This document shows positions 3,047-62,803 of a DNA stretch of 64,000 bases, piece by piece. The first letter of the stretch is position 1. Every line of letters starts with the position of its first letter. Below the pieces are notes generated by a model. The model worked only from the letters and a program-made list of their open reading frames with translations, was not told the origin of the DNA and ran no database searches. Position numbers and translations under genes: made by a program. Source of the DNA: Parcubacteria group bacterium (lineage in GTDB: Bacteria > Patescibacteriota > Minisyncoccia > Minisyncoccales > UBA10102); NCBI GenBank assembly GCA_016203945.1, contig JACQLT010000002.1, forward strand, positions 797 to 64,796. The letters run 5' to 3'.

Positions 3047-4417
3047 CTATTGTAGGGCGAGATCTTTACCAGCTCCTGCGGCAAGAGCTTTGATATCGTC
3101 TTCGTATCCTTTGGCAATCGCCATCACCGAGTCGCCGTAAAAACGGTACCGCGTATTCGTGCTGCCCGAGAAATAGATCATGGCGGCCCGCCACTCAGCC
3201 GTATACGTCTGTTTCGCGGCGCCAGAATCAACCAGTAACACGGCAGCTGCCATGAAGGCGTCTTTAATATTCCAAGGGTCTCCCGGGCGCCCGAGGATAT
3301 CTTTCAATTTCTTTTCATATAACGCCCATGTTGAAGGGATGAACTGGGCAGGACCCATAGCTCCCCCATATCCTCCGACCGACGGAATCGGGCAGGAAAC
3401 TGGGGTCTTAGAAGCATCCCTTCCCAGTTCTCCTGTGATGCGCAAGAAGGGTTGCACATCACGCGAGGGCTTCATGACGTTCCGTATTGCAGCTCCCGTG
3501 CGGATGCTTATTCCCCCGCCAGTCGCTGCATCTGTCATGTAGCACTGACCCACATTCTTTCCCAAATTAGATTCCTGGGTGAGGACGGCTAGCAAGAGAG
3601 CAGCCCTGATCCCGGTTCTCGCAGAAACCTCCTGGGCAATGGCCAGCGCCTCTCCGAACGTGGGGGCATCTGGCACACCGACAATATCAAAAATCCGGTT
3701 TCTGATTTCCTGCGCACGCAGCCGAGTGTTTGCAAGCTGCTTTTGATATTCAGCCTCCTTTCCCTGTGTCTGTTGGAGCAGACGCTCCTGCTCTGCCTTT
3801 GCCGCCTGGGTCTGCTGGCGCTGCAGGATCTGGATCTTCACGAAGTTCTCTTCTTCTTGCTTGTCCGTCTCTAATGAAACCTTCTGGTCCTGGAGATAGA
3901 CGTTCAAGTCCTGAATATCTAAGAGCAACGCCCGGTTTCTTGCGTTGAGAGAATCAAGCGCCACGAGATTCTCAAAGAATTCCGAAAGGTCGGATCCCGT
4001 AAGGAGAATTTCCAGCGCGGTTTTCTGATCTTCTTCGTAGATGCGCTGAAGAATATCTCCCAGCTGAGCTTTCTTGTCTTCAATATCCCGCCCGGTCTTA
4101 TCTATAGAGGACGAGGTGTCCGCAATCTGCACCTTCAGATCTGAAATGAGTCTGTTCGACTGGGTAATCTGCAGGTTGAGCTTTGCGATCTGGTTTTTGA
4201 CAATAGTAATCTGATTCTGCAAAGTCTTTTTTTCCTGCTGGGTCTTCGTAATATCCTGCTCGTATTGCTGAATCTGCTGCTCCAATTGCTGAAGCTCCAG
4301 CTCCAACTGGCTCCGTTCTTCCTGGGGGGTGAGAGCAAACACGCCGCCAAGCGGCAAAAGAAAAACAAGCATCAAGGTCGTTGCCGCGGCTTTTTTCGGA
4401 AACCTCAAAATGCTCAT
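3047..4417 (-). CDS. secreted coiled-coil protein with C-terminal MltB-like lytic transglycosylase domain
   Basis: Signal/TM (LMLVFLLPLGGVFA), then ~220 aa of Q/E/K-rich heptad-like sequence. C-terminal AVLTQESNLG (catalytic Glu context) and GGAMGPAQFIPSTW resemble the SLT_2/MltB family. Confidence 0.7.
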   Translation of the reverse strand: MSILRFPKKAAATTLMLVFLLPLGGVFALTPQEERSQLELELQQLEQQIQQYEQDITKTQQEKKTLQNQITIVKNQIAKLNLQITQSNRLISDLKVQIADTSSSIDKTGRDIEDKKAQLGDILQRIYEEDQKTALEILLTGSDLSEFFENLVALDSLNARNRALLLDIQDLNVYLQDQKVSLETDKQEEENFVKIQILQRQQTQAAKAEQERLLQQTQGKEAEYQKQLANTRLRAQEIRNRIFDIVGVPDAPTFGEALAIAQEVSARTGIRAALLLAVLTQESNLGKNVGQCYMTDAATGGGISIRTGAAIRNVMKPSRDVQPFLRITGELGRDASKTPVSCPIPSVGGYGGAMGPAQFIPSTWALYEKKLKDILGRPGDPWNIKDAFMAAAVLLVDSGAAKQTYTAEWRAAMIYFSGSTNTRYRFYGDSVMAIAKGYEDDIKALAAGAGKDLALQ

Positions 4418-5082
4418 TCCTGAGTTGGCGTTGATTCGGCTGACTCTTCTTCTGGTTCCTCTTTCTTTTCTTTCTCTATCTTTGCCACCTCTTCCACGCG
4501 TTCCTCCACCGGAGTGGCTAACTCTTTCTCAACATCGGTCACGGGAACCACCTGAGCCACGACGTCTTCAAGGGTATGCTCTATGGTCACGCCCTCTGGT
4601 ATTCGTATGTCTTTTACGAAAATGCGGTCTTCAAAGGTAGCCAAACTCTCCACGTTGCAGATAAGCTCATGGGGAAGATTCTGGGGAAGCGCGGAAACCG
4701 AAATCTCCTGGATATGCCTAATAAGCGTGCCGCCCAGTTCCTTTACCGCAGGAGCTTCTCCTTGGACCGTGATGGGCAGATCAACCTTCACCTTCTTGTC
4801 CAACGGAGGCTCGTAGAAATCAATATGAATGACGGTACCCTGCAAAGGATCACGCTGCACGTCGTGGATGAGCACAGGCACCTTCCGATCCCCAACCTCC
4901 AGGCTCAACAGCGTGCTCTCCCCTGCTTCCTTGAAGGCTTTCTCAAACTCCCTCTGTTCCACGGAAATCATCTGGCTCTTGCTTTTGGGTCCATACAAAA
5001 CAGCAGGGATCTTTCCTGCTCCCCGTAATGCGTTCGTTTTTCTGCCTTGTTCCTGGCGTAGACTCGCCTGAATGCTGGTCAT
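4414..5082 (-). CDS. rplY: 50S ribosomal protein L25 / general stress protein Ctc form
   Basis: RGAGKIPAVLYGPKSKSQMISV N-terminus, two-domain length, acidic C-terminal tail. Confidence 0.9.
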   Translation of the reverse strand: MTSIQASLRQEQGRKTNALRGAGKIPAVLYGPKSKSQMISVEQREFEKAFKEAGESTLLSLEVGDRKVPVLIHDVQRDPLQGTVIHIDFYEPPLDKKVKVDLPITVQGEAPAVKELGGTLIRHIQEISVSALPQNLPHELICNVESLATFEDRIFVKDIRIPEGVTIEHTLEDVVAQVVPVTDVEKELATPVEERVEEVAKIEKEKKEEPEEESAESTPTQE

Positions 5083-12142: not shown

Positions 12143-12481
12143 TTATAACCCGGAGAGGTCGCTTTCTATCGCTTCGAGTTCGGCATCAAGTCCCGAAAGA
12201 TCGGTTTCGTTGAGATCGGCCTTAATGGCATCAAGCTCGTCGGAAGTTCGCACGCTTTGCAAATCTTTTGCGGTTGCGTCTTCCCCAGAAGGAATGGCGA
12301 GTCCTTCGGCTTGAAGCGCCTGCTGTTCTTCTTGAGTCAACTCAATCGGAGTTAAATCCTGCTCAATCGTAATGGACTCCTTCTGATACGAAGGGCCACG
12401 GTTCAAGAAAAATAATATTCCTCCCGCAACAACAACGAGGATAATGATTACACTGATAAGTTTGTTTTTGCTTATGGTCAT
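12143..12481 (-). CDS. hypothetical TM-anchored acidic protein
   Basis: N-terminal TM (LISVIIILVVVAGGILFF) and a D/E-rich ectodomain. ATG follows the upstream stop by 2 nt. Confidence 0.5.
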   Translation of the reverse strand: MTISKNKLISVIIILVVVAGGILFFLNRGPSYQKESITIEQDLTPIELTQEEQQALQAEGLAIPSGEDATAKDLQSVRTSDELDAIKADLNETDLSGLDAELEAIESDLSGL

Positions 12482-12483
12482 GA

Positions 12484-13899
12484 TTATATACTGGTATTTG
12501 ATCTGGAACTGTTGTAATCGTCGGCTGCTTGTGCATGCACCTCAATAATTATGGCGCGGAGGTTTTCTATGTCTGTTTTAAGCTCCGCGGCTATGGCGCG
12601 GGCTTCTTCCGCAACTCCTCCTACATTTTCGCCCAAAAGCAGCGATTCATATTTCGCCTTAAGCTCTTCCATCTTTGCCTCGTTTTCAACGCTCATACTT
12701 TTAGCTTTCTCAATAAGCGGGGCTGTTGATGATGTATCAATCCCTTGCGCTTCAAGTTTTAGAATCCGCAATTCCAGCCGGCCTAAAATATGGTCAAACC
12801 GGGCCATTGCCGAGCGGTAACGATTGAGCATGCGCAATCCTTTGCCGTGGGCAACGGCAATGCGCGCCGTTTTTCCGTGATCCACATGGCCTATTGTTGT
12901 TTCAACATTTTCTCGGAAATTATCGCGAAGCGCTTTTGCGGCTTCATGAACTGCGGGCTCACGAACCTTCTGTACGGCCGGCAGTAATAAAGCGGATCGT
13001 TGTAGATCTGATAGCGCCGAATCGGTCTGATGTAAGAGCGCCCGCTCCAGTCCCAACACATCCGCAATCAAACCCTTGTCTTCCACAGCCGCAAGCAACT
13101 CAATGTCGCCCTCAACAATCTTTTTTACGGTCAGAAGCGACTGGATTGCCTCTTCTTTTCTGCCGTCTTTGATCGCCTTCTCTGCCTCAGTCGTCACGTC
13201 CGCCCTGCTCTTTGCATGGTCCCCAACCGTTATGCATACCTTTGTATCACAACCCTTGAGCCGTTCCTGTATCTTCCCAATGGTATTCTGCATCAACTCA
13301 ATCTTTTTACCAGGGATTCCTTGAATTTTAATATATGATTTAGATTGCGGGGTATCTCCTGCGCTAGGAGCAGAAACTTTACGTTGGTTTCCATCTGTAT
13401 CCTCAATCTGTGTTTCTCCTGCAGGTGCCGATTTAGTGTTGGATTTGGACTCGTTGTAGTTCTTTCCCGCGGCTGGAGCAGGAACCGCCCCTGAAGTAAA
13501 TTCTTTTTCGGGAGAATCAGCTCTGCGATCGGGAAAGCCGTGTGCGTTACCGTCTCCTGCAGATTCTTTTGTAGCAGAATCAGCTCCGGCGCCAAGCTCA
13601 TCAAGTTTTGTTAAAACTTCCTGGATGCCAGGGTCGCTTACACCAAATCTAACTAGCATCGCCCTGAGGTCAACCGTGCTAATGCCTCGAGCAAGAGCAT
13701 CCGTCACCTCATTGATCTCCGCGCCGCCAATGCCGTAGCGCAAAAGAATATCTCCAACGTGTTTGTTTGCTATTGGTATGTTTACTACTGATATTGAGGT
13801 ATTTGACCTCGAGCTGTTGTAATCGTCGGCAGAAAATACAGCCGCAGCAGAGAGTACCGCTGCCCCCACGATGAATATTGTGATTATTTTTATACGCAT
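12484..13899 (-). CDS. hypothetical secreted protein with identical 13-aa terminal peptides
   Basis: Signal peptide MRIKIITIFIVGAAVLSAAAVFS. ADDYNSSRSNTSI follows it directly and recurs as the last 13 residues. Helical C-terminal half; no family recognised. Confidence 0.6.
   Translation of the reverse strand: MRIKIITIFIVGAAVLSAAAVFSADDYNSSRSNTSISVVNIPIANKHVGDILLRYGIGGAEINEVTDALARGISTVDLRAMLVRFGVSDPGIQEVLTKLDELGAGADSATKESAGDGNAHGFPDRRADSPEKEFTSGAVPAPAAGKNYNESKSNTKSAPAGETQIEDTDGNQRKVSAPSAGDTPQSKSYIKIQGIPGKKIELMQNTIGKIQERLKGCDTKVCITVGDHAKSRADVTTEAEKAIKDGRKEEAIQSLLTVKKIVEGDIELLAAVEDKGLIADVLGLERALLHQTDSALSDLQRSALLLPAVQKVREPAVHEAAKALRDNFRENVETTIGHVDHGKTARIAVAHGKGLRMLNRYRSAMARFDHILGRLELRILKLEAQGIDTSSTAPLIEKAKSMSVENEAKMEELKAKYESLLLGENVGGVAEEARAIAAELKTDIENLRAIIIEVHAQAADDYNSSRSNTSI
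12487..12525 (-). repeat. C-terminal ADDYNSSRSNTSI coding copy
   Basis: GCC GAC GAT TAC AAC AGT TCC AGA TCA AAT ACC AGT ATA. Confidence 0.85.
13792..13830 (-). repeat. N-terminal (post-signal) ADDYNSSRSNTSI coding copy
   Basis: GCC GAC GAT TAC AAC AGC TCG AGG TCA AAT ACC TCA ATA. Same peptide; differs from 12487-12525 only at synonymous sites. Confidence 0.85.
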
Positions 13900-13921
13900 A
13901 AATTTGTATGCTGATATTTCA

Positions 13922-13949
13922 ACTTTACCTTATCTGGTGATAGCGTCAA
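13922..13949 (-). promoter_or_regulatory. candidate promoter TTGACG-N16-TAAAGT upstream of the 471-aa gene
   Basis: rc of 13944-13949 = TTGACG and rc of 13922-13927 = TAAAGT. 22-nt leader without an obvious SD. Confidence 0.35.
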
Positions 13950-13996
13950 GAGGAAAAAAACGGCTGTGCGTGTCTGACTTGCACAGCTATGCAGGG

Positions 13997-14029
13997 GTCT
14001 CGGTCACCTGACTTAGCATATGACGGCTG
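13997..14029. repeat. 33-bp direct repeat, distal copy
   Basis: gtctcggtcacctgacttagcatatgacggctg, identical to 15049-15081. Confidence 0.9.
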
Positions 14030-14121
14030 TGTACCTTGGCCTAGAACCAAGGGGTTAAGAGGGATTTCATGGATTTCTAGGGATGTCTCATTGACCCGTC
14101 TCGGTCACACGATCAAATGGA

Positions 14122-14283
14122 CTAAGTAAATAAAAGTTTGAATATCTCAAATATGATCCAGGTAGTAATAAAGCCAATGCCGTACAAAAGCAAAAAACTT
14201 AGAAACGAACGTTTTTTATTGATACCAAAACTAACAACAAGTACTTCTACAGCAGCAAGTATTGCAATAAAATCGAAATTCAT
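14122..14283 (-). CDS. hypothetical 53-aa two-TM micro-protein
   Basis: Not in the ORF track (<60 aa). MNFDFIAILAAVEVLVVSFGINKKRSFLSFLLLYGIGFITTWIIFEIFKLLFT. ATG lies 1 nt after the upstream TAA. Confidence 0.35.
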   Translation of the reverse strand: MNFDFIAILAAVEVLVVSFGINKKRSFLSFLLLYGIGFITTWIIFEIFKLLFT

Positions 14284-14284
14284 A

Positions 14285-14458
14285 TTATTTTTCTAATCCT
14301 TTTTCGTGTAAACAATTCTCATGGAGAACTCCAGCGAATTCTTTTTTAGCACACTCTTTTCTGATTTGCGTCGGCCGCCACTCATACCAATAAAAAACAA
14401 ACTCTAAAACTATAAGCAGTATTAAGACGATGTATTTATATTGTTTTATTTTTCCCAC
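14285..14458 (-). CDS. possible 57-aa single-TM micro-protein (GTG start)
   Basis: VGKIKQYKYIVLILLIVLEFVFYWYEWRPTQIRKECAKKEFAGVLHENCLHEKGLEK. The only possible start is a GTG, with no SD. Confidence 0.2.
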   Translation of the reverse strand: MGKIKQYKYIVLILLIVLEFVFYWYEWRPTQIRKECAKKEFAGVLHENCLHEKGLEK

Positions 14459-14530
14459 ATACTTAGTTGAAGTCTATTTTAATGCAAGAGTATCTTAATC
14501 TATTCGTCTCGGTCGAGATTCTATCCAAAA

Positions 14531-15043
14531 TTATGGTGTTAATCGAAGCACTTTCTCAATAATGGGAAAAGCGAGAAAAAGAACCCATAATGATAAAATA
14601 ATATTTCCAGCCAGATATGCCGGTCCAGCTAAATGCGAGTTGAAATATGGGATAAAAGGAATAGCAATTAGCGCCAAAGCCACATTAGATAAGCAAACAA
14701 CTGCGAACGTCTTTAAATCAATTGTAAGTTCTCGCATGGAAGCTTCTATTTTTGTTATATCTTCGGCAATAACCCCTATAGGGACACTCATCCTATCTCG
14801 CTTCGTCTGATCTCGTTGCAATTTGAATACGGCAAGCATCCCCAAGAAAGCTACCAACGCAACAAATCCTTGGACTATGGTGCTGAACGAATAGTAGTAA
14901 ACATACGAACCTCCTTGTCCAAAGAGAGCCGTAAGGTCAAAAAGACCCTTCAGCAAATACGTAACTAGCCCACTCAAAAGAAACGGCATTATAATATGAC
15001 CGACTCTATATTTCCGCATAATTTTCTTTAATTTATTAGTCAT
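14531..15043 (-). CDS. hypothetical 4-TM membrane protein
   Basis: 170-aa ORF in the AT-rich islet with four hydrophobic helices. No family recognised. Confidence 0.55.
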   Translation of the reverse strand: MTNKLKKIMRKYRVGHIIMPFLLSGLVTYLLKGLFDLTALFGQGGSYVYYYSFSTIVQGFVALVAFLGMLAVFKLQRDQTKRDRMSVPIGVIAEDITKIEASMRELTIDLKTFAVVCLSNVALALIAIPFIPYFNSHLAGPAYLAGNIILSLWVLFLAFPIIEKVLRLTP

Positions 15044-15048
15044 AACGC

Positions 15049-15081
15049 GTCTCGGTCACCTGACTTAGCATATGACGGCTG
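15049..15081. repeat. 33-bp direct repeat, tRNA-proximal copy
   Basis: Identical to 13997-14029. Its last 3 nt are the 3' end of tRNA-Gln. Confidence 0.9.
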
Positions 15082-15149
15082 CGGGACCAGGATTCGAACC
15101 TAGATTAACGGATTCAGAGTCCGCTGTCCTACCATTAGACGATCCCGCA
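15079..15149 (-). tRNA. tRNA-Gln (anticodon CUG)
   Basis: rc: TGCGGGA-TC-GTCT..GGAC-A-GCGGA-CTCTGAA-TCCGT-TAAT-CTAGG-TTCGAAT-CCTGG-TCCCGCA-G. The U1-A72 pair is typical of bacterial tRNA-Gln. Confidence 0.88.
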
Positions 15150-15389
15150 ATGTTTCATTTTCGCTTTTAATGCGCGCTTCCCTTTTGCTGTTTTATAAAA
15201 TCGCTCGATTCTAAATGCCTCATATTTATCTTCGTATTGTTCAGAATAGATTAATTTTATTGGCAACCTATTCTTTGTAGAACGAACTCTTCCTGACTGA
15301 TGAATTGCGATTCGCTTGTTTAAATCTTCGGTGCATCCGATGTACAGATTACCATCTCTCTCGCTTCTCAAAATATACACCGTATGCAT
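15135..15389 (-). CDS. GIY-YIG (URI-domain) nuclease, 84 aa
   Basis: VYILRSERDGNLYIGCTEDLNKRIAIH..., with downstream R and E residues of the GIY-YIG fold. The last five codons plus stop (TGC GGG ATC GTC TAA) are nt 1-15 of tRNA-Gln. Confidence 0.85.
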   Translation of the reverse strand: MHTVYILRSERDGNLYIGCTEDLNKRIAIHQSGRVRSTKNRLPIKLIYSEQYEDKYEAFRIERFYKTAKGKRALKAKMKHCGIV

Positions 15390-24370: not shown

Positions 24371-25424
24371 CGTAATATCCCAATGCCGCCAATCCCGGAA
24401 GCCGATCTCCCGCAAGAAACGCGAGCAACGCCCCCCCTCCGGTTGAGACATGACTGAACTTATCCTGCAATCCCTGCTTTCGCAAAAACGCGTTTAGATT
24501 TCCTCCGCCGGCAACCGAATACGCATGGCTCGCAATGACGGCCTGAGCCAGGGCGAGAGATCCTTTCTTATATTCCTCCTCTTCCACCCTCCCCACGGGA
24601 CCCGACCAAAATACGGTTTTTGCGTCCTTTAGCATCTCGCAAAACAGCGCGATGGTGCCAGGTCCGATATCAAAATTCAGTCCGTTGCCCGGATTCCCGT
24701 CAACTGGTTTCACAACCTTCTGCATATTCTTAAACCGTATGTTCTTTAACTCAAGCTCTCTGGCGATGAGATTGCTCACCAGAAGCGCGTCCGCGGCCTC
24801 GGAAATCGTATCCAGAAAATCCGCCTTGGTCTCCACCTTTGTGCCCCCGACGATGACGACCATGGGCTTTGCGGGGTTCTTGAGCAAGGGTTCTAGGGCC
24901 CGTACCTCTTCAAGAAGCGCCAGCCCAGCGAACGAAGGAATCAAAGAGGGCAGCTGGTCTATTGATGCATGGGCCCGATGGCTCGCGGAAAACGCTTCGT
25001 TGACGTATTGGTCTCCCAGACGAGCCAACTGTTTGGCGAACTCGGGGCTGTTCTTTTCTTCTCCTTCATGGAAACGCAGGTTTTCAAGCAAGAGCACGTC
25101 TCCCGGCTTTATCGCCAGGATTGCGTTCTCCACATCCTTGCCGACGCAGTCATCCGCCTTGTTCACAGGGATGCCGAGAAGCGAAGCCAGCTGAGAGCGT
25201 ACCGAGTTGAGCCGAAATCGCTCCACTACCTTGCCTGCGGGCCTATCCAAATGGCTTATGAGAATGACCTTTGCCCCCTCTTGCACCAGGTATCGTATGG
25301 TTCTGAGCGCGGAAACAATGCGCAAATCGTCCAGAATATTGCCCTGCTCATCTAAAGGAACGTTGAAGTCGCATCGAACAAGCACCCGTGTATTAAGGAC
25401 CTGGGCCTGCTGGATGCTCTTCAT
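24360..25424 (-). CDS. pgk: phosphoglycerate kinase (short form)
   Basis: RCDFNVPLDEQG, ISHLDRP, VVIVGGTKVETK, STGGGALLAFL. Confidence 0.92.
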   Translation of the reverse strand: MKSIQQAQVLNTRVLVRCDFNVPLDEQGNILDDLRIVSALRTIRYLVQEGAKVILISHLDRPAGKVVERFRLNSVRSQLASLLGIPVNKADDCVGKDVENAILAIKPGDVLLLENLRFHEGEEKNSPEFAKQLARLGDQYVNEAFSASHRAHASIDQLPSLIPSFAGLALLEEVRALEPLLKNPAKPMVVIVGGTKVETKADFLDTISEAADALLVSNLIARELELKNIRFKNMQKVVKPVDGNPGNGLNFDIGPGTIALFCEMLKDAKTVFWSGPVGRVEEEEYKKGSLALAQAVIASHAYSVAGGGNLNAFLRKQGLQDKFSHVSTGGGALLAFLAGDRLPGLAALGYYDGN

Positions 25425-27091
25425 TGAGAATCAAATGAAACGGTCTGTCCGGGCTCCAGGTTCCCCTGTTCGCCCCCCCCGGAAGGAGCTTTCTGTTCAA
25501 GGGCAGAAAACAGGGCTTTTCGCACTGCGTCCCGGTCTATATCTTTATGAGGCCTGTTCGTTTCCCGGTTTTGCCTTGAAGGATGAAACAAGACGGGCTC
25601 GATAGAATGCGCCTGATTGAAAGAAGGGGGGCGCCGCTGCTGTAGTTTTTTCCGGCAGGACTTGCAGTAGGTCGGGCGCTTGCCGTCCGGCTGGAACACA
25701 ACTTTCGTGTCCCTGCCGCAGATGCTGCACCTGGCGTCATATAAAGCCTGAGGCTGTTCTTGGGGCGCAAAAGGAGCAGTGCGCAGCTGAGAAGAAGGGG
25801 CTGTTGATTGAATCCCCACCCAGTCTGCGATGCTTTCCTCCACTCTGGCTACCTGAGTGCCGTACGTTTGTCTGGAAGCTGCGATGATTTCTTGTTCGTG
25901 CGAATCTGCGGGGCGCGCCTGGGGAGCGAGCGTACTCGCCGAAAAAGGCTTTCCCGCGATGCCGTCTATCATGAGTTTTACGTACGCGTGATATTTCGTA
26001 AGATTCACAAAATCCTGCAGGAGAAAGTCCGGGGAGAACTCTTTTTCAAGCACTTCCGCGTCCTCGGCTCCCACGCGGAATGTCACGATGGTTCCCATGT
26101 TTCCGAATACGGCGTCGCGCACCTGCGCCTGGTCCCCCGTTCCCAGCTGGGCTATATACTGATGACTCAGGATAAGGGCCAAGCGGTATTTTCTGGCCTC
26201 TGAAAGAATGTTTACGAAGCTCTCTGTGGCGAAGTTCTGAAACTCGTCAATGTACAAGAAGAAATCTTTGCGACTCTGTTCTGGAATATCCACGCGAGAC
26301 ATGGCAGCCAGCTGGAGCTTGGTGATGAGCAGGGCTCCCAAGAGTCTGGAGTTATCCTCCCCGATCCTCCCTTTCGCGAGATTCGCGATAAGAATTTTCT
26401 GCCCGTCCATGATTTCGCGCATGTTGATGGTGGAGTGGGTCTGACCAATGATGTTGCGCACAAGCGGGTTGGCGATGAACTGACCAACCTTGTTTTGAAT
26501 TGCGGCCGTTGCCTCTACCTCATAGCGCTGCGTGTACCTTGCGTATTCCTGCGTCCAAAACGCCTTTACCACGGGGTCCCCGATGTTGTTCACCACCCGT
26601 TTTCGGTATTCAACGTCAGCCAGCATGCGGTTTACTCCCAACAGCGTGGAACCCGGAGATTCCAGAAGCGCCAAAATCGCGTTGTTGAGAATATACTCCA
26701 TGCGGGCAGACCACACGTCAGGCCAGATCTTCTTGAACACAGACATGAGGCCGGAAGCCACCAAGTGCCGGAACTCGGGGCCCACGTCTTCCATGACGTT
26801 AAAGGCAATGGGATACGCCATGTCGGCCGGATTAAAATACACTACGTCCTGCACGCGCTCTTTCGGCACGAAATGAAGAATCTCTTCTGCGGCCTCTCCG
26901 TGCGGGTCAACGAATCCGACTCCCTCGCTCCCCACGATGTCCTGAATGATCATCTGCTCTAACATAGAGGTCTTGCCCATGCCGGTCTTGCCAAGCACAT
27001 AGAAATGGCGGCGCCTGTCGTCGCGCTTGATGCCGAATTTCTGCCGCCGATTGCGAAAAGTTGTCTCTCCGAAAAAATTAATGTCTATCAT
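25421..27091 (-). CDS. FtsK/HerA-superfamily, VirD4/TraD-like P-loop ATPase with C-terminal CxxC-x17-CxxC zinc ribbon
   Basis: YVLGKTGMGKTS (Walker A), FFLYIDEFQNF (Walker B), ARKYRLALILSHQ, then CSICGRDTKVVFQPDGKRPTYCKSC at 25655-25729. Confidence 0.75.
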   Translation of the reverse strand: MIDINFFGETTFRNRRQKFGIKRDDRRRHFYVLGKTGMGKTSMLEQMIIQDIVGSEGVGFVDPHGEAAEEILHFVPKERVQDVVYFNPADMAYPIAFNVMEDVGPEFRHLVASGLMSVFKKIWPDVWSARMEYILNNAILALLESPGSTLLGVNRMLADVEYRKRVVNNIGDPVVKAFWTQEYARYTQRYEVEATAAIQNKVGQFIANPLVRNIIGQTHSTINMREIMDGQKILIANLAKGRIGEDNSRLLGALLITKLQLAAMSRVDIPEQSRKDFFLYIDEFQNFATESFVNILSEARKYRLALILSHQYIAQLGTGDQAQVRDAVFGNMGTIVTFRVGAEDAEVLEKEFSPDFLLQDFVNLTKYHAYVKLMIDGIAGKPFSASTLAPQARPADSHEQEIIAASRQTYGTQVARVEESIADWVGIQSTAPSSQLRTAPFAPQEQPQALYDARCSICGRDTKVVFQPDGKRPTYCKSCRKKLQQRRPPSFNQAHSIEPVLFHPSRQNRETNRPHKDIDRDAVRKALFSALEQKAPSGGGEQGNLEPGQTVSFDSQ

Positions 27092-43551: not shown

Positions 43552-45381
43552 TTACCTGTATGAAGGAACAAGGCGGTGCAGCGTATCAACTAAAGATTGC
43601 GATTCAGCTCCTGCCAGGCCTTCTTGCAGATGCCCTAGCCCCTTTTCCAGCAACGCGGCATCCAGGGGCGGAAGCTTCGCTATGAAAATCTTCTGATGCT
43701 GGGTTGCGCTCGTCCCCTCTTCCGCGCTCAGCATTTCTTCAAAAAGCTTTTCTCCGGGTCTCATGCCGGTAAATATGAACTGAATGTCGCGATCCGCTTC
43801 CAAACCCGAAAGACGAACCATTTCCCGGGCTAAATCCACAATCTTCACGGGGCTGCCCATATCAAGCACGAATATCTCTCCCCCTTTTCCCATGGCTGAA
43901 GCCTGCATCACGAGCAGACAGGCTTCGGGATTGGTCATGAAATAGCGTTTCATTTCAGGATCGGTAATCTTTACAGGCCCTCCTCTTTTAATCTGTTCCC
44001 GGAAAAGCGCCACAACATTCCCCCTGCTGTCCAATACGTTCCCAAAACGCACCGCAACAAAACGGGTGCCGCCCTTTCCGGAAAGCTCCTGACAAATCAT
44101 CTCTCCCACGCGCTTGGTAGCGCCCATGACCGAAGTCGGGTTAACCGCCTTATCGGTGGAAATATATACGAAACATTCAGTCCCGAGTCTTCCGGCAATT
44201 TCTGCAACGATTCTCGTACCTAATATATTCGTTCGCACGGCTTCTGCGGGATCGGCCTCCATTAATGGTACATGCTTGTAGGCCGCGGCATGAAACACAA
44301 TATGTGGCTGCCATTGCTTGAATACGCGCTCTATTTTCTGCTCATCGGTAATATTGCCCACGCATGAAATAATGCGTACGTGAGAAAACCGCTCATTGAG
44401 CTCTTGGGCGAGCATGAATATCCCGCTTTCATCTTGATCAAGGAGCACAATGACTGAGGGCGCGAATGTTGAAACCTGACGGGCAAGTTCAGAACCAATA
44501 GAGCCTGCGGCTCCGGTAATGAGTACAATTTTTTCACGGAGAAACCGGGAAAGCGCGTCTGTATCCAAAGATACCACTTCTCTTCCGAGAAGATCCTGTA
44601 CCTGCACGTCCCGCACGTCTGCAAAAGAGACCTTTCCGTCAAGGATCTCTCCCAGAGAAGGCAACACTTTCATGGTCTCAATCTGGGCTTGGCGTCCAAG
44701 CTCCACCGCTCGCTTTATGGCAGAGGAAGGGGCCGAGGGCATCGCAATGATCATCTCCTGGATTCCGTACTGTTTTGCGACAGCAGGGATATCAGGTACC
44801 GTTCCCGCAACGCGTACGCCGTGGATGCTCAACCCTTGTTTTCTCTTGTCGTCATCCACAAAACACGAAGGTGTGTATTTTTTCTGGCCGGTCTGCATGC
44901 TTCGCAGCAGCTGTTCTCCCGCATCGCCTGCTCCGACGATAAGGACACGGACACCTCCTGCGTTTTGCAGGGAGATATGCTGGGCAATGCGTTTTGCCAT
45001 GCGTATGGCTCCCGTGAAAAAGAACGTCAGTACGTATCCGACGAGCAATGTAGACCTGGGAAGTTCTGCAAACGCCCTCACGCCCTGGACGCTCACGACA
45101 ATGGTGGTGATCAACAGGAACCCGCCGGTCACGGCATACCAAAGCACAAGCACATCTCTCGTGCTCACGTGACGCCAGGAGAAAGAATACAGGCGGGCCC
45201 AAAGGAAAACAGGGAGAATCGCGGCCCAACCCAGCACGATCATGACGGGCAATGTTAGATAAAGATGTACAGCCGGAATCATTCCGTCAAAACGCAGAAA
45301 GAACGCAAGGAAAAATGCGAGCGCTATAAACAGCGCATCACCGAATAGAAACAACAGGGTTCTTGAAATCCTCTGAGTCAT
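43552..45381 (-). CDS. membrane-anchored polysaccharide biosynthesis protein (CapD/WbpM/PglF-type UDP-HexNAc 4,6-dehydratase)
   Basis: Four N-terminal TM helices, VLIVGAGDAGEQL and VLITGAAGSIGSEL Rossmann motifs. Confidence 0.85.
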   Translation of the reverse strand: MTQRISRTLLFLFGDALFIALAFFLAFFLRFDGMIPAVHLYLTLPVMIVLGWAAILPVFLWARLYSFSWRHVSTRDVLVLWYAVTGGFLLITTIVVSVQGVRAFAELPRSTLLVGYVLTFFFTGAIRMAKRIAQHISLQNAGGVRVLIVGAGDAGEQLLRSMQTGQKKYTPSCFVDDDKRKQGLSIHGVRVAGTVPDIPAVAKQYGIQEMIIAMPSAPSSAIKRAVELGRQAQIETMKVLPSLGEILDGKVSFADVRDVQVQDLLGREVVSLDTDALSRFLREKIVLITGAAGSIGSELARQVSTFAPSVIVLLDQDESGIFMLAQELNERFSHVRIISCVGNITDEQKIERVFKQWQPHIVFHAAAYKHVPLMEADPAEAVRTNILGTRIVAEIAGRLGTECFVYISTDKAVNPTSVMGATKRVGEMICQELSGKGGTRFVAVRFGNVLDSRGNVVALFREQIKRGGPVKITDPEMKRYFMTNPEACLLVMQASAMGKGGEIFVLDMGSPVKIVDLAREMVRLSGLEADRDIQFIFTGMRPGEKLFEEMLSAEEGTSATQHQKIFIAKLPPLDAALLEKGLGHLQEGLAGAESQSLVDTLHRLVPSYR

Positions 45382-46511
45382 GACAGTAGATCCATGCTCT
45401 CTTGAAGAGCTTTGATTACCCTATGTTGCTGCTGGGGCTGAAGCACCGAAGAAAACGGCAACGCAATCGTCCTGTCGCCAACCCACTCCGTATGCGGGAA
45501 CTTTCCGAGCTTGGACCCGAATGCCTGACGATAGAACGGCTGCAGATGAATGGGCTCAAAGTATGTGCTGCACTGCACCCCTCTTTTTGCCATGAGTTTC
45601 ACAATCCTATCCCGATGAGATTTCGTAAAAGGAGGGGTGAGCATGAGCACGTATACGAACCAGCTTCGTTTCGCGCCGGGCCTGGAAACCGGAAGGATGA
45701 CCCGCTTCTCTTGCGAGAGCAGACGAGAGTACAACGAGGCGGCTCTTGCTCGTTTTTGCAACATCCCTGGCAGGCGCTTGAGCTGCGCCAACCCCAGGGC
45801 GGCCTGCATCTCTGTCATCCGGTAGTTGTATCCCAATCTCACGTGCCCCAGCCAAGTATTCTTTCCCTGCTTTCTTCCTTGATTCGTCATGCTCCGACAG
45901 AGATCCGCAATCCTCTTATCGTCAGTCAGCACCATCCCTCCTTCTCCGGTGGTCATCTGCTTGTTCGGATAGAAAGAGAATATGGCGGCATCTCCAAATC
46001 CTCCGCACTTCTTGCCTTTGTATATGGCCCCAATGGCTTCTGCAGAATCCTCAATAACCTTCAACCGGTATTTCCTTGCGATGCGCAAAATCTCATCCCA
46101 CGCGGCTGGTTCGCCGAACACGTCTACCGCCAAAATCGCTTTCGTCCGCCCTGGGCGAATCACCTTCTCTATCTTTGCAGGATCAATATTAAATATGTCT
46201 TTTTCAATGTCCACGAATACGGGCGATGCCCCCACGTACAGGATACAGTTGGAAGAAGCGATGAAAGAAAACGAGGGCACGATCACCTCGTCCCCTTTGC
46301 CGATCCCCAATGCAGACAAGGCAAGATGCAGCGCCGAGGTTCCGGAGTTCACGGCAACGGCATACTTCCTGCCAGCCAGCCGCGCCATGCCCTTTTCAAA
46401 TGTCGATATCTGGGGACCCGAACCCATGGAAGTCAGAATGGGCGTTTTCAATACATTCTGCACCGCCGTGCGTTCGGCTTCTGTAATGTCTGGGGAAGAA
46501 AGGGGAATCAT
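45378..46511 (-). CDS. DegT/DnrJ/EryC1/StrS-family sugar aminotransferase (PglE-like)
   Basis: AVNSGTSALHLAL and SFYPNKQMTTGEGG (PLP-Lys region). 4-nt overlap with the dehydratase gene. Confidence 0.88.
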   Translation of the reverse strand: MIPLSSPDITEAERTAVQNVLKTPILTSMGSGPQISTFEKGMARLAGRKYAVAVNSGTSALHLALSALGIGKGDEVIVPSFSFIASSNCILYVGASPVFVDIEKDIFNIDPAKIEKVIRPGRTKAILAVDVFGEPAAWDEILRIARKYRLKVIEDSAEAIGAIYKGKKCGGFGDAAIFSFYPNKQMTTGEGGMVLTDDKRIADLCRSMTNQGRKQGKNTWLGHVRLGYNYRMTEMQAALGLAQLKRLPGMLQKRARAASLYSRLLSQEKRVILPVSRPGAKRSWFVYVLMLTPPFTKSHRDRIVKLMAKRGVQCSTYFEPIHLQPFYRQAFGSKLGKFPHTEWVGDRTIALPFSSVLQPQQQHRVIKALQESMDLLS

Positions 46512-46528
46512 GAATGGCTTGTAGCTTC

Positions 46529-46930
46529 TTAGCTTTTTAGCTTTTTGATGACTCGAGCGGGAATTCCAAATGCGACCGCGTTGGCAGGAATATCCTTATT
46601 GACAAAACTGAATGCTCCCACAATGGCTCCTTTGCCTATCGTAACTCCTGGCATGATGAGCGAATGAGATCCGATGCTGCAGTTTTTTTTCAGCACCACT
46701 TTTCCTTCTTTTTGGTCAATCGTAGATACGGAATAAATGGAACAATGGGATCCTATTTGGGCCTCGTCCTCAATAACCACCCCGTATTTTGCATTGATAT
46801 AGGTAAAGGCACCGATATCGGTTTTCTTCCCAAGCTTCAAGTTCTTGGCGTGCTGGACCAGCCAGTGATATTTTGTCGGTCTTCCCTCCCGTATGGTCGG
46901 ATATTTCCAGCGAACAAATCGGTCATTCAT
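46529..46930 (-). CDS. hexapeptide-repeat acetyltransferase (PglD/WbbJ-like)
   Basis: Left-handed beta-helix repeats IGSHCSIYSV / IGSHSLIMPGVTIGKGAIVGAFSFV. Confidence 0.8.
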   Translation of the reverse strand: MNDRFVRWKYPTIREGRPTKYHWLVQHAKNLKLGKKTDIGAFTYINAKYGVVIEDEAQIGSHCSIYSVSTIDQKEGKVVLKKNCSIGSHSLIMPGVTIGKGAIVGAFSFVNKDIPANAVAFGIPARVIKKLKS

Positions 46931-46935
46931 GGCGT

Positions 46936-47550
46936 TTATTTATAGTCTTCAACAACCCCTTTCGCCCCGTATTGGCCTTTTCCCAATAGCACGATTATAG
47001 CCGTATAGAAGAGAATTTTCAAGTCAAGAAAAATGGACCAGTGCTCAATGTACCATACGTCCCACCGAATGCGCTCTTTCCAGGAAAGCGTGTTCCATCC
47101 TTTCAGCATCGCCATATTCGCTATTCCGGGTTTTACCAAAAGACGCTTTCGTTCTGATGCGGAATATTGGGCCGCCTGATGCGGAAGGGCGGGCCGCGGC
47201 CCGACAAATGACATCTCCCCTTTCAAAATATGGAAGAGTTGAGGAAGCTCGTCAATGCCGAATCTCCGGAGTATCCGCCCGACCCAGGTGATGCGAAAAT
47301 CATTTTGCTCCACCTCAATCCCCCTTCCCATATTCACCGCGTTCTCTACCATCGTCCGGAACTTCAGCATTCTAAACACCTTCCCGTCTTTCCCCACCCG
47401 TTCTTGGATGAAAAATATAGGGCCTCTGGAGTCTATCCTGATGAGAATTGCGATAATAAAAAAAGGGATCGCAAGCACGACGAATATCGCTAATGCCGCG
47501 AGAAGATCAAATACTCTCTTGAGAAATCTCTGAAATCCCATCATATGCAT
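46936..47550 (-). CDS. polyprenyl-phosphate sugar-1-phosphate transferase (bacterial sugar transferase, PglC/WbaP-C type)
   Basis: FFIQERVGKDGKVFRMLKFRTM and GIDELPQLFHILKGEMSFVGPRP. Confidence 0.88.
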   Translation of the reverse strand: MHMMGFQRFLKRVFDLLAALAIFVVLAIPFFIIAILIRIDSRGPIFFIQERVGKDGKVFRMLKFRTMVENAVNMGRGIEVEQNDFRITWVGRILRRFGIDELPQLFHILKGEMSFVGPRPALPHQAAQYSASERKRLLVKPGIANMAMLKGWNTLSWKERIRWDVWYIEHWSIFLDLKILFYTAIIVLLGKGQYGAKGVVEDYK

Positions 47551-47556
47551 ATCCTA

Positions 47557-49584
47557 TCACGGATTCTGCCCGAGAGAAGATATGCGAAGTTTCGCTTTCA
47601 GAAGCTGCTCGTACTCTTTCCGAAGTAGTTCGAATACCGCATCCTGATCATATTCCCGCTCCACCTTTTTTCTCCCCTCCTCCCCCATTACTTTGGCTTC
47701 TTCCGGATGAGAAAGAATATGCTCAATCGCCTCCGCCAGCTTTGCTGGATTACTGGAAGGAACCAGGAATCCCGTCTTTTTGTCATCCACCCCCTCCCTG
47801 CATCCTCGAATATCAGAAGCCACAACAGGTCTCTTCATCGCAGAGGCCTCTAAAATGGAGAGCCCCAGTCCTTCCCTGTACGAAGGCAGGACGAAGACAT
47901 CCATAACGGAATACAGCTCGATGACGTCTATGCGCTCTCCAAGAAACAGCACCTTGTCCCGGATGCCGTATGTATCAACAATGTTTTTATCCAGCGCATC
48001 TCTTTTTTCTGGCTCCTCCGGTCCTATGATAAGCAGTACTGTATTCGGAAATCGTTTTAGGATTTGGACAAACGCGGCAAAAAGAGGAATAAATCCCTTT
48101 TCTCTCACCAAGCGAGCCACAATTCCAACAACCTTCGTATTGAGAGGAACGCCTATTTCCCGCTTCTTTTGCGCGATGAACTCTTTTGAAAATCGACTCG
48201 GATCAAATTTTCGAAGGTTAATGCCTCCTCCGACATATATTACTTTTCCAGAGGGGTAAATCCCATGACCAGTTAAAAATGCGACATCTTCCTTGTTTAC
48301 CGAAAATGCCTTATGGACGATTTTTGCGATAATCCTCTCTATGGGAATAAAGATGAATTTCTTTTGCCAGGAAGAATCTTTCTGAAAATAGAGCCCGTGA
48401 ATGGTCGTGATGCGAACTGGAACTCTTGCGAAGAATGCCGCGAGCTGTCCCAAGAAACTTGCCTTGGGCGTATGAGTGTGCACAATATCAAATCGCTCTT
48501 TTTTGAAAAACCAATAAAGTCTAAATAATGCCGCAAGGTCTGCAATTGGGGTAAAGAGCCGCCTTGTAATCATAGTGGTCTGCACCTTTATTCCGGTATT
48601 TCTGATTTCTGGCACCCATTTCCCATCCGAAGATGCCGCATGCACCTCGTATTTCTCTTTCTGAAGGTAGCGCATAAAATCCAGGAGAAGAAACCGCAGA
48701 GAAATATCTGCGGACGCCACCTGGCATATTTTAAACATACGATCCTGTTCTTTGTGGGAACGAGCTCCCCTTAATTGATACCCCATCCCTTTTATCCCTC
48801 GCCTCAAAGAAGCAGGGACAAGATAGCTCACATATCCTCTTGCAATGCCAAGAGAGGCCCGCAAGCTCTTTGGGTAAAACCCCTCTCTAAGAGCTTTCTG
48901 TCTTGCCTTGAGCGCAAAGAGCGCCTGTTCTCTGTTTCTGGTCCGCGTGATGGAATCAGGGGCAAATCGGTAGGTGGTCAAATATGCAGAGAGATTCGCA
49001 GTGTCGTAGAATTTTGCAATGCGGAAATAAAGCTCGTAATCTTGAGTGTATTTCCAGCGCTCATCGTACCAGCCAACCTTGTCGAGGGCCTCTTTTCTCA
49101 TCATGATGGCCGAGTGTACGAATGGGTTAGTGAAAATAAGCGCTCTTTTGAGGGCGGCGCTATCTGTGGGAAGTTTCTTTTTGTTCGCTATGGTTCCCTC
49201 CTTGTCCATCTCATACGCCCAGGTGCCCAGAAGGGCGCAGGAAGGATTGGCTTCAAGAAACTCCACTTGAAGCTGAATCCTTTCCTTGTGTGCGATGGCT
49301 TTGTCGTCTACACGAGCAATATACTTTCCCTTCGCTTCCCTCAAGGCCTTGTTGAGAGATTTGGTAAGGCCAAGGTTTGTTTGATTGCTCAGGAGCCGGA
49401 TCCTTGCGTCTCGAACGGCGTATTCTTTGAGTATGTGAGAAGTTTCATCCGAAGAAGCATCATCTACGATAAGAAGTTCCAGATTTTTGTAGCTTTGAGA
49501 AAGAATGCTTTCTACGGACTCTTTGAGAAGCGAAGCGCGGTTGCGAGTAGCCATGACTACGGAAACAAGAGGTCTGTTTTTCAT
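47557..49584 (-). CDS. bifunctional glycosyltransferase, GT2 (N-terminal) + GT4 (C-terminal)
   Basis: VSVVMATRNRASLL..LELLIVDDASSDET (GT2). REGLGLSILEASAMKRPVVASDIRGCREGV (GT4 E-x7-E region). Confidence 0.85.
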   Translation of the reverse strand: MKNRPLVSVVMATRNRASLLKESVESILSQSYKNLELLIVDDASSDETSHILKEYAVRDARIRLLSNQTNLGLTKSLNKALREAKGKYIARVDDKAIAHKERIQLQVEFLEANPSCALLGTWAYEMDKEGTIANKKKLPTDSAALKRALIFTNPFVHSAIMMRKEALDKVGWYDERWKYTQDYELYFRIAKFYDTANLSAYLTTYRFAPDSITRTRNREQALFALKARQKALREGFYPKSLRASLGIARGYVSYLVPASLRRGIKGMGYQLRGARSHKEQDRMFKICQVASADISLRFLLLDFMRYLQKEKYEVHAASSDGKWVPEIRNTGIKVQTTMITRRLFTPIADLAALFRLYWFFKKERFDIVHTHTPKASFLGQLAAFFARVPVRITTIHGLYFQKDSSWQKKFIFIPIERIIAKIVHKAFSVNKEDVAFLTGHGIYPSGKVIYVGGGINLRKFDPSRFSKEFIAQKKREIGVPLNTKVVGIVARLVREKGFIPLFAAFVQILKRFPNTVLLIIGPEEPEKRDALDKNIVDTYGIRDKVLFLGERIDVIELYSVMDVFVLPSYREGLGLSILEASAMKRPVVASDIRGCREGVDDKKTGFLVPSSNPAKLAEAIEHILSHPEEAKVMGEEGRKKVEREYDQDAVFELLRKEYEQLLKAKLRISSLGQNP

Positions 49585-50327
49585 ATGCGCTTTCTGAGAA
49601 AAAACTTACGAAAAAAAAATTTAATGTCGTACCAGAGAAAAAAGGGGATCAAGGCAAGCCCTTTGATCTTTGCTTTTTGTTTTGCTTTCTTCAGATCTTC
49701 TCCGCCAAGCACCAGGGAAAGCGCTTTTGCAAGTTGCGCAGGGGCTGGTTGAAGTTCCAAAAATGCGATGAGTTTTCTCATGGTGCCTTGGGTATTCTCG
49801 AGCATTTCTTCATAGGAAATTTCAAGCGTCCGGAGATCAGGGTTTCTTTCAAAAAATTCTTTAATGCGCTCTTCGTACACACGAGTAATTCGTAAGGCTT
49901 CATCTCTCCGCATCCCTGACCTCTTCTGTAAGGACTCGGCAATCTGGTTGGGATTTCTCTTGCAATGAATAAAATAAGGATTTCTCAAGAAGGGAAAGTA
50001 GAGAGATATGGTGAGGCTCGTACGAGGATCTTTCCAGCCCCAAAGATCTCGCTCTGATCTTGCAATAAGATTTTTTATTCTTGGAGCAAAACGATCTCTA
50101 ATCGCTTCAAGCTCGGAAAGAGAAGGGGGGTGAGCCGCGTCTCCATTCGCTGCGAGCAGGAGGGTATCATTCAGCTCTACAAATTCCGCATTCTCAAAAT
50201 GGCCGAGGGGATTTGAGGATGTCGCTCCAATCAGCTTCTTTCCCAGATGCACCCCCAAGACATTCAAGATGCTTGCTGTCAAAGAGGTGCCGGATCGATG
50301 CATGCCAATCACGACTATGGTTTTCAT
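49581..50327 (-). CDS. PAPS-dependent sulfotransferase family protein
   Basis: VVIGMHRSGTSLTASIL matches the 5'-phosphosulfate-binding loop of sulfotransferases. 4-nt overlap with the GT gene. Confidence 0.7.
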   Translation of the reverse strand: MKTIVVIGMHRSGTSLTASILNVLGVHLGKKLIGATSSNPLGHFENAEFVELNDTLLLAANGDAAHPPSLSELEAIRDRFAPRIKNLIARSERDLWGWKDPRTSLTISLYFPFLRNPYFIHCKRNPNQIAESLQKRSGMRRDEALRITRVYEERIKEFFERNPDLRTLEISYEEMLENTQGTMRKLIAFLELQPAPAQLAKALSLVLGGEDLKKAKQKAKIKGLALIPFFLWYDIKFFFRKFFLRKRI

Positions 50328-50339
50328 GAATGAGAAGAA

Positions 50340-50873
50340 TCACCGAATATATCCATGTCCTTTCAGATAATCAAGAATCTTTTGCTTGTTTTCTTCGATG
50401 CTCGCAGTATCCGTATGAAGTTCTATGTTCGGGTTTTCTGGAAATTCGTATGGATCGGAAACTCCGGTAAAATTGGGGATCTCTCCTCTCTCTGCTTTTT
50501 TATACAACCCTTTTTTATCTCTCTGTTTACAAACCTCCAAAGAGCAACTGCAGAATACTTCAATAAAGTTTTGAACCTCCTTCCGCACCCCTTCCCTCTG
50601 CGCCCGATACGGAGAGATAAAAGAAGCTATCACTCCGACACCATTTCGACTCAGCAACGCGGCAAGAAATCCAACCCGTCTGATATGTTCGTCGCGATCC
50701 TCCTTTGTAAAACCGAGGTCTTTCCAGAGGTGCTTGCGCACAAGGTCTCCGTCCAAGCGTTCTGCAAGATACCCTCTTTGCTTGAGCTCTTCCTCTACTC
50801 GGTCTCCCAGAGTTGTTTTTCCAGAACCTGAGAGGCCGGTAAGCCAAAGTACAAATCCTTTTTGCATGTGCAT
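50340..50873 (-). CDS. cysC: adenylyl-sulfate (APS) kinase
   Basis: WLTGLSGSGKTTLG, LDGDLVRKHL, VIASFISPY. ATG 50873 lies just after the upstream stop. Confidence 0.9.
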   Translation of the reverse strand: MHMQKGFVLWLTGLSGSGKTTLGDRVEEELKQRGYLAERLDGDLVRKHLWKDLGFTKEDRDEHIRRVGFLAALLSRNGVGVIASFISPYRAQREGVRKEVQNFIEVFCSCSLEVCKQRDKKGLYKKAERGEIPNFTGVSDPYEFPENPNIELHTDTASIEENKQKILDYLKGHGYIR

Positions 50874-50877
50874 GTTC

Positions 50878-52624: not shown

Positions 52625-52632
52625 ACCCGTCT

Positions 52633-52661
52633 ATAATGGAGCAGGAACGTAAAAAAGTCAA
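52633..52661 (-). promoter_or_regulatory. internal promoter TTGACT-N17-CATTAT, 8 nt from ATG 52624
   Basis: rc of 52656-52661 = TTGACT and rc of 52633-52638 = CATTAT. Confidence 0.4.
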
Positions 52662-52673
52662 CCGCTCTTTCCT

Positions 52674-55706: not shown

Positions 55707-55709
55707 CTG

Positions 55710-58419: not shown

Positions 58420-58429
58420 AAAGATGCTG

Positions 58430-60384: not shown

Positions 60385-60398
60385 AGAGATGTATTTTA

Positions 60399-62794: not shown

Positions 62795-62803
62795 TATCCT
62801 GCA

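Follow-up and report, generated by a model that had tools for sequence, protein, structure and literature searches.

The 64-kb stretch of DNA analyzed here (contig JACQLT010000002.1; hereafter, the window) carries on its reverse strand an open reading frame (ORF; 12484–13899) for a secreted-type protein of 471 amino acids (aa) from an uncultured Parcubacteria bacterium, identical to the NCBI entry 'hypothetical protein HY458_00870 [Parcubacteria group bacterium]'. The protein begins with MRIKIITIFIVGAAVLSAAAVFS|ADDYNSSRSNTSI and finishes with HAQAADDYNSSRSNTSI before the stop codon, and its gene forms a two-gene cassette with a partner gene (Table 1). The initial annotation had described one and the same 13-residue peptide, referred to below as the tag, as the mature N-terminus and the extreme C-terminus of this protein, and both placements held: the first copy directly follows a signal peptide with typical n-, h-, and c-regions and a putative cleavage site (VFA|A or VFA|G in orthologues), and the second is directly followed by the stop codon. 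The degenerate third copy was also present, but its interval, previously given as 13429–13464, had been drawn one codon too long; this copy is kept as GKDYNESKSNTKS in the homologues P0003, P0004, and P0008. A degenerate DNA pattern for the motif matched the 64-kb window in two places only, namely at both terminal copies (shuffled sequences: 0 expected), and a six-frame peptide scan of the window found the motif nowhere outside this ORF. Our comparison of related sequences shows that purifying selection on the peptide has preserved the motif separately at each of the two positions, and that it marks the disordered ends and module junctions of a small, nearly Parcubacteria-restricted, mobile protein family.

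Table 1. Features of the tagged gene, its product, and the partner gene in the window (pLDDT, predicted local distance difference test score).
Feature	Positions	Strand	Residues	Remarks
Promoter-like site TTGACG, 16 nt, TAAAGT, upstream of the ATG	13922–13949	−		consensus scan, 9/12 matches; weak evidence
Sec-type signal peptide MRIKIITIFIVGAAVLSAAAVFS	13831–13899	−	1–23	basic n-region, 17-aa hydrophobic core, putative cleavage at VFS|A
N-terminal tag ADDYNSSRSNTSI	13792–13830	−	24–36	pLDDT <50
N-domain, small, helical	13573–13788	−	38–109	AlphaFold pLDDT 91–97
Degenerate third copy NYNESKSNTKS	13429–13461	−	147–157	within the 85-aa disordered linker
SYIKIQGIPGKKIEL, remnant of the recurrent short motif 'M1'	13294–13338	−	188–202	aligns with the first strand of the homologues' tail-tube half-domain
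Middle helical bundle	12961–13317	−	195–313	pLDDT 89–96; stand-alone or differently fused relatives in other phyla
Loop TIGHVDHGKT	12868–12897	−	335–344	10/10 residues identical to the EF-Tu G1 loop
C-terminal helical hairpins	12526–12954	−	316–458	most conserved part of the protein
C-terminal tag ADDYNSSRSNTSI	12487–12525	−	459–471	pLDDT ~38–51; TAA at 12484–12486
Co-operonic partner gene, 112 aa	12143–12481	−		one N-terminal transmembrane helix, acidic tail; begins 2 nt downstream of the tagged gene's stop codon

The pair of tags had been ascribed to selection on the peptide rather than to a recent DNA duplication, and this view is now strongly supported by the codons. The N- and C-terminal copies differ by six nucleotides in four codons (AGC/AGT, TCG/TCC, AGG/AGA, and TCA/AGT), and every one of these differences is synonymous, as first reported. 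The TCA/AGT pair represents a three-base switch between the two serine codon families, which is unreachable by single synonymous steps, and in simulations, six random substitutions preserved the peptide in ~3e-5 of the trials. A longer DNA repeat or a recent duplication was ruled out, since the repeat comprises exactly the 40-nt tag (85% identity, including the six differences), with no homology in the flanks. Furthermore, the motif-coding DNA was compared from 20 related loci. In the window and in the loci L002/L019, L006, and L018, the N-terminal copy constantly uses the codons AGC TCR AGG TCA AAT ACY TCA and the C-terminal copy AGT TCC AGA TCA AAT ACC AGY. The stability of the two codon sets across orthologous loci indicates two old copies, each evolving on its own under purifying selection; they split before the cassettes separated and have kept the same peptide ever since, with no homogenization by gene conversion. 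The 13-mer AEDYNSSRSNTST is identical in a Jorgensenbacteria locus (L001, 44% GC) and in a Gemmatimonadetes locus (L008, 62% GC), with 10 of the 13 codons being different. In L006 (5811–6741; Sungiibacteriota), the N-tag and the C-tag were located in separate ORFs of ~205 and 209 aa, suggesting a frameshifted or split gene copy.

Alternatively, conservation might act on the nucleotides, with the C-terminal copy being kept for a translation-coupling overlap with the downstream gene and the identity of the peptide being secondary. In 13 loci, the last 13 codons and the junction between tagged gene and partner are almost identical at synonymous sites, and the junction itself, ATATAATCATG, is identical. 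However, a DNA identity of ~85% extends over the partner gene and the whole 3' end of the tagged one, meaning that conservation is not specific to the tag, and the N-terminal copy encodes the same peptide with other codons and no downstream gene. This explanation is disfavored and can hardly be credited; the N-terminal copy contradicts the idea that conservation stems from a ribosome-binding or coupling element.

Comparison of the cassettes showed that the tagged gene is their variable member and the gene for the small membrane protein their constant one. The partner protein is 81–83% identical in five other aligned loci and 68–100% identical among the 120 clusters listed out of 156; over many Parcubacteria lineages, its identity amounts to 68–90%, and it has no distant relatives. 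Between the window and locus L003, DNA identity amounts to 85% for the 3' end of the tagged gene plus the partner gene, compared with 65% for the adjacent DEAD-box helicase gene, and the GC content at third codon positions is 0.45–0.48 in the cassette versus 0.60–0.71 in the flanking housekeeping genes. Together with a GC content of 37.7% in the 1.1 kb upstream, these contrasts make the cassette look horizontally mobile or unusually constrained. The upstream stretch contains three small membrane ORFs, and the region as a whole (12143–15050) suggests a horizontally moving islet. The remaining neighbors differ between genomes. An ORF of 84 aa (15135–15389, reverse strand), which resembles a GIY-YIG nuclease by eye (YILRSERDGNLYIGCT...), is situated at the border of the AT-rich stretch that precedes the cassette.

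An AlphaFold2 model of the window protein was built with a 60-sequence alignment and reached a mean pLDDT of 72. In this model, the helical hairpins span aa 316–465, and a linker of 85 residues (aa 110–194) is disordered. Both tags are disordered as well (pLDDT below ~50), with values below 50 for residues 11–36 and 468–471 and of about 51 for residues 461–470, and neither is docked in cis. Structure prediction had been proposed in order to see whether the termini are adjacent; in the model, the tags are docked neither to each other nor to a domain. The linker also contains a short direct repeat (13500–13523 and 13563–13586; ADSATKE and ADSPEKE, 24 nt, 83% identity). Searches against Pfam and NCBIfam returned no significant match for the window protein or its partner, a PDB sequence search with the window protein returned 0 matches, and Foldseek against the PDB recovered generic four-helix bundles only (E >0.06).

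The family members are Sec-secreted, mostly alpha-helical mosaic proteins with reshuffled modules. Relatives of the middle bundle (P0080, P0082, P0088–P0091, P0095, P0101, and P0113) occur as stand-alone secreted proteins in other organisms, some of them with Tat-like signals and often ending in GVMPGDNV, and P0101 and P0113 combine the bundle with tail-tube-like pieces (KKPGRTTY) in a fusion. The peptide TIGHVDHGKT sits in a loop between helices, and a 30-residue segment containing it was searched against the PDB; the best 60 of 86 matches were all EF-Tu or IF-2 (E 0.01–0.5). Homologues swap this loop for an FG-GAP-like piece (P0012), KWSxDNGSVxY (P0013 and P0041), or FLKIDTADGN (P0030). A translational GTPase (EF-Tu/IF-2) was rejected, since only the G1 loop is present and the whole protein gave no GTPase match in PDB or Pfam. 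At the place aligned with SYIKIQGIPGKKIEL, P0021, P0025, and P0038 match the tail-tube family PF06841 (profile positions 4–66 of 134) above the Pfam gathering score. Likewise above that score, P0023, P0046, P0049, and P0053 contain embedded HU positions 3–61 of 90. P0060 holds a partial embedded DUF5667 domain, and P0099 repeats the Hcp-like peptide YYLKIDGIDGK several times. A phage tail tube or inner tube of a contractile injection system (PF06841, TIGR02241) was rejected for the window protein, which showed no match, the three homologues matching positions 4–66 of the profile only.

A word-indexed search retrieved 60 relatives, and HMMER, run exhaustively against 1.84 billion representatives, retrieved only 76 clusters. 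Every member with a name belongs to the Parcubacteria-type bacteria of the Candidate Phyla Radiation (CPR), and the gene is also carried by the complete genomes CP066690.1 and CP066691.1. The window peptide represents one instance of the family motif [DN][YF]NSSxSN[TKS]S, with the longer consensus [AGT][KDE][DN][YF]NSS[RILK]SN[TKS]S[TIS]. The strict motif was counted 82 times in 61 of 113 family sequences: directly after the signal peptide (35 instances), after an alternative N-terminal module (GDPVPGLDITIEQIPGG, 'M1'; 12), within seven residues of the C-terminus (27), or internally (8). Four of the internal instances lie in the counterpart of the disordered linker and four where an extra module joins the C-domain, including those in P0013, P0020, and P0025. 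The positional preference is thus strong, with 74 of the 82 instances being terminal.

At least six positions of the motif are nearly invariant, and no sequon requires that many. Ahead of the aromatic residue, Asp stands in 50 instances, Asn in 30, and Glu and Ser in one each; in the window protein, both terminal copies have Asp and the internal copy has Asn. The aromatic residue itself is Phe instead of Tyr in 7 of 82 instances and His in P0062. Among the general peptide classes considered, an EF-hand-like calcium loop was rejected (position 6 is not Gly and position 12 is not acidic), as was a PDZ ligand (last residue often not hydrophobic, N-terminal copy without a free carboxylate). Nearly all proteins with the N-domain carry the N-terminal motif, which lies 10–15 residues upstream of that domain wherever the domain sits; in P0060 and P0099, the N-domain is placed at the C-terminal end of the protein, and a motif variant still precedes it. 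The double tag, however, varies within the family: only 26 of the 60 C-domain proteins end in the motif, and the rest end in other short tags or in none. The substitutes IKIQGIPGK, GIGEEGVN, and RLEINLR were also found in linkers or at N-termini of relatives, and such replacement of the C-tag by other short motifs looks like a repertoire of displayed peptides.

Taken further, the family could be a horizontally mobile display scaffold, whose helical bundles would present peptides copied from hallmark parts of unrelated proteins at loops, linkers, and ends. On the surface of the epibiotic CPR cell, the two tags would then serve as molecular mimics, or as plugs that complement strands, directed at structures of the host, of phages, or of the cell itself. 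The displayed pieces may include the EF-Tu P-loop, the first strand and half-domain of phage-tail/Hcp-type tubes, half of HU, an FG-GAP blade, and two beta-sandwich strands. We regard this proposal as speculative and improbable.

To determine how widespread the peptide is, the collections were scanned with the exact degenerate DNA pattern for A[DE]DYNSSRSNT. Nine loci matched in 596 Gb of GTDB species genomes and eight in the JGI metagenome collection, and IMG/VR yielded 0 loci. With 17 loci in GTDB and JGI together and none in IMG/VR, the motif is very rare in public data and not a common low-complexity feature, which was one of the doubts raised initially. Most of the refuting conditions named at the outset were decided in favor of the observation, the variable double tag being the exception. 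All matching loci belonged to this family and had the motif in an N- or C-terminal position, except for L014 (a spurious short ORF) and L008. The motif string was not found in the published literature, no Pfam or NCBIfam family describes it, and literature searches returned nothing relevant on CPR oligosaccharyltransferases, Parcubacteria surface proteins, or DUF5667. The motif is previously undescribed, and so is the protein family with its conserved membrane partner.

The exception L008 originates from a Gemmatimonadetes metagenome-assembled genome of 62% GC and encodes (4060–4554, forward strand) a secreted protein of 164 residues containing both GDPVPGLDLSLQGIPGG and AEDYNSSRSNTSTSI, with a CarboxypepD_reg/SdrD-B-like beta-sandwich core between them; the gene adjoins an ORF of 689 aa. 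Only two relatives of this protein were detected among 5.8 billion clusters, and they keep the motif as ENYNSSRSNTS and EDHNSSRSNLS. In the beta-sandwich relatives P0061 and P0062, the motif is conserved and was modeled as strand 88–100 of a hairpin (AlphaFold, modest confidence). The nearest solved folds were the UafA and SdrD B domains and CnaB2, as weak matches (Foldseek E 0.005–0.1). Many CPR members keep the first strand and the motif strand without the core between them, which suggests that they descend from such a beta-sandwich domain and retained a functional peptide.

The one folded setting of the motif is thus a beta-sandwich, where it is modeled as a strand, and CPR proteins carry that strand, often along with the first one, but not the core; this arrangement is reminiscent of the strand-complementation tags of CnaB/SdrD-B domains (FbaB as parent of SpyTag/SpyCatcher, or donor-strand exchange in pili). 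Unlike in those systems, there is no Lys in the first strand, no evident catalytic triad, and no 'catcher' domain was found; the first two of these points mean that no isopeptide chemistry is indicated. An isopeptide bond of the SpyTag-like CnaB type was rejected on the grounds that P0061 and P0062 lack Lys in the first strand (GLDLSLQS and GVDVSIEQ) and match the CnaB2 fold weakly.

The same observations could be taken to mean that the motif is an evolutionary scar, i.e., a functionless piece of linker that remained after modules were shuffled, its source perhaps being a collapsed beta-sandwich domain or a truncated tandem unit. The family is indeed a mosaic of reshuffled modules, the motif and the GDPVPGLD..IPGG module flank the core in the complete beta-sandwich protein while many CPR members keep these two pieces only, and several kinds of C-terminal tag resemble the first residues of a missing module. 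However, a scar would be expected to decay, whereas the peptide is invariant at many positions in relatives with only 36–60% identity elsewhere. Furthermore, the two copies in the window protein differ synonymously only, and the peptide is identical across phyla despite the 10 changed codons mentioned above. We disfavor this reading as very improbable.

A peptide that is selected, exposed, and working at either end or at junctions has the hallmarks of a short linear motif that is recognized in trans. The reading that we favor is that the motif is a docking tag recognized in trans, to which we assign a probability of about 0.35. It is preferred because the invariance extends beyond the sequon, because the aromatic position tolerates Tyr, Phe, and His, and because the motif was modeled as a strand in a folded domain. 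The tag would be unstructured alone and become extended and beta-strand-like on binding its partner, which might be either a protein domain or a glycan of the envelope; Asn, Ser, and Arg/Lys, along with the conserved aromatic residue, would be suited to binding sugars. With one tag on either end, the helical scaffold would be fastened to the cell surface by both of its free ends, or scaffolds would be joined with one another.

In its logic, the motif most resembles, by analogy, the targeting peptides that work at either terminus. The encapsulation peptides of microcompartments are cytoplasmic amphipathic helices with known shell receptors, and the cargo-loading peptides of encapsulins are cytoplasmic, too. 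These are likewise short peptides on a flexible linker, N- or C-terminal depending on the member, and they are read in trans; by contrast, the motif described here is extracellular and polar.

Several results weigh against the docking reading. No receptor was found, and nothing in the AlphaFold model hinted at the tag binding domains of the same protein. As for the partner membrane protein, it accompanies the tagged gene irrespective of which C-terminal tag is present and is therefore probably not the receptor. In P0061, the strand was assigned from one model of five, with pLDDT values of 49–73. N-tag and C-tag subtypes do not co-vary within proteins, and since they vary independently, the perfect identity in the window protein is a special case. 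Finally, no other tagged family was present in the ~310 kb of CPR DNA sampled (the window and the CPR loci among the 20 related ones), indicating that the motif is not a general sorting signal.

The last point also separates the motif from LPXTG/sortase, PEP-CTERM/exosortase, and GlyGly-CTERM/rhombosortase signals. These are, like the tag, short, lineage-restricted, selected motifs at the end of secreted proteins; however, the tag is not followed by a transmembrane helix or a basic tail, it is found in linkers and at the mature N-terminus as well, a single tagged family was found per genome in the DNA sampled, and no sorting enzyme lies nearby. A sorting signal of the sortase/exosortase type was rejected, as the motif ends the window protein and lies within seven residues of the C-terminus in 27 family instances, and the window contains no sortase-like Pfam match.

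The initial annotation had also considered processing and ligation, in which the same recognition sequence at both ends would allow one protease or transpeptidase to trim, excise, or join the protein. Asn-directed sites flank cyclotide domains, and cleavage sites separate the units of polyproteins; cyclotide precursors are cut and joined by asparaginyl endopeptidases at repeated end sequences. The invariant Asn and the occurrence of the motif in the long linker and at the C-domain/extra-module junctions fit such a role, and as in cyclotide precursors, the same short Asn-containing sequence stands on both sides of a unit. However, hardly anything would be cut off at a site located at the extreme terminus of the mature protein, and no protease or transpeptidase is conserved beside the gene in four neighborhoods. 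In contrast to cyclotides, the unit is a multi-domain one of 420 residues, no such enzyme lies nearby, and many relatives are single-tagged; to our knowledge, cyclization of a 448-residue multi-domain helical protein is without precedent. Processing or ligation therefore seems quite improbable.

Glycosylation, which had likewise been suggested at the outset, has more in its favor. Here, the tag would be an acceptor with the tandem sequon N-S-S and N-T-S, the first in the bacterial context D/E-X-N-X-S/T, and the disordered ends and linkers would be modified by an envelope glycosyltransferase, protecting or anchoring exposed segments of a Sec-exported protein; in a variant, a GT-C enzyme would O-glycosylate the Ser-rich stretch. 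For the bacterial sequon, the site has to be flexible and exposed, and the reducing end of the glycan has to carry an acetamido sugar (PMC8518210); D-Y-N-S-S fits the consensus D/E-X-N-X-S/T (PMC8518210). Both terminal copies hold N-S-S and N-T-S with X not being Pro, and their disorder in the AlphaFold model corresponds to a flexible, exposed site. The second Asn is part of N-x-S/T in 58 of 82 instances (71%), compared with 11.7% of Asn elsewhere in the family, and the instances seen with a broken first sequon (NSA, YGSS) retain the second. In addition, the window contains a PglF/PglE/PglD/PglC-like block (43552–47550; Pfam Polysacc_synt_2, DegT, Hexapep, and Bac_transf in a row, by family assignment an acetamido-sugar lipid-linked glycan pathway), glycosyltransferases, and a weak GT-C PMT_2-like membrane protein (57094–58419), and a PMT_2 gene lies near the homologue in L018.

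Set against the sequon of Campylobacter PglB, which the tag matches in its D-Y-N-S-S core, its exposed site on a Sec-exported protein, and the PglFEDC-like pathway in the window, the motif nevertheless departs in several respects. Asn replaces the acidic residue at −2 in 37% of the instances, which is not accepted by canonical PglB, and further positions that a sequon does not need are near-invariant (the aromatic residue at −1, Ser at x in 75 of 82 instances, and Ser before the second Asn). No STT3/PglB or PglL-type oligosaccharyltransferase was found among ~40 scanned ORFs of the window, and no paper was found on N-glycosylation in CPR bacteria. Restriction to one family, together with 13-residue identity across phyla, is also more specific than is usual for acceptor sites. 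Glycosylation is the main alternative to docking, though somewhat less probable.

Almost nothing is known about how CPR bacteria (Patescibacteria) build their cell surface and attach to hosts. The sharply defined, selected peptide of 10–13 residues at accessible ends could be used as a pull-down probe or as a target for glycoproteomics, and should it be a docking tag or a dedicated modification site, it would represent a new surface-assembly signal in a major uncultured lineage.

The glycan genes belong to a larger cluster on the reverse strand (43552–63523), which, in addition to the PglF/PglE/PglD/PglC-like block and the weak PMT_2 GT-C protein, comprises a fused GT2-GT4 enzyme, a sulfotransferase beside an APS kinase, UDP-glucose dehydrogenase, epimerases, sulfatase-like proteins, GT4 enzymes, a TagF-like glycerophosphotransferase, and a nucleotidyltransferase. 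The sulfotransferase adjoining the APS kinase (49581–50915) suggests a sulfated glycan. Sulfation or another modification of the Tyr hydroxyl in the tag was rejected in view of the Phe and His variants at this position. The rest of the window is largely occupied by housekeeping genes (FtsZ, GAPDH, FKBP, FtsEX, RF1/RF2, LepA, MurJ, SecA, and SecDF), among which an ATPase resembling TrwB/type IV coupling proteins and featuring a treble-clef zinc finger is encoded at 25421–27091 on the reverse strand.

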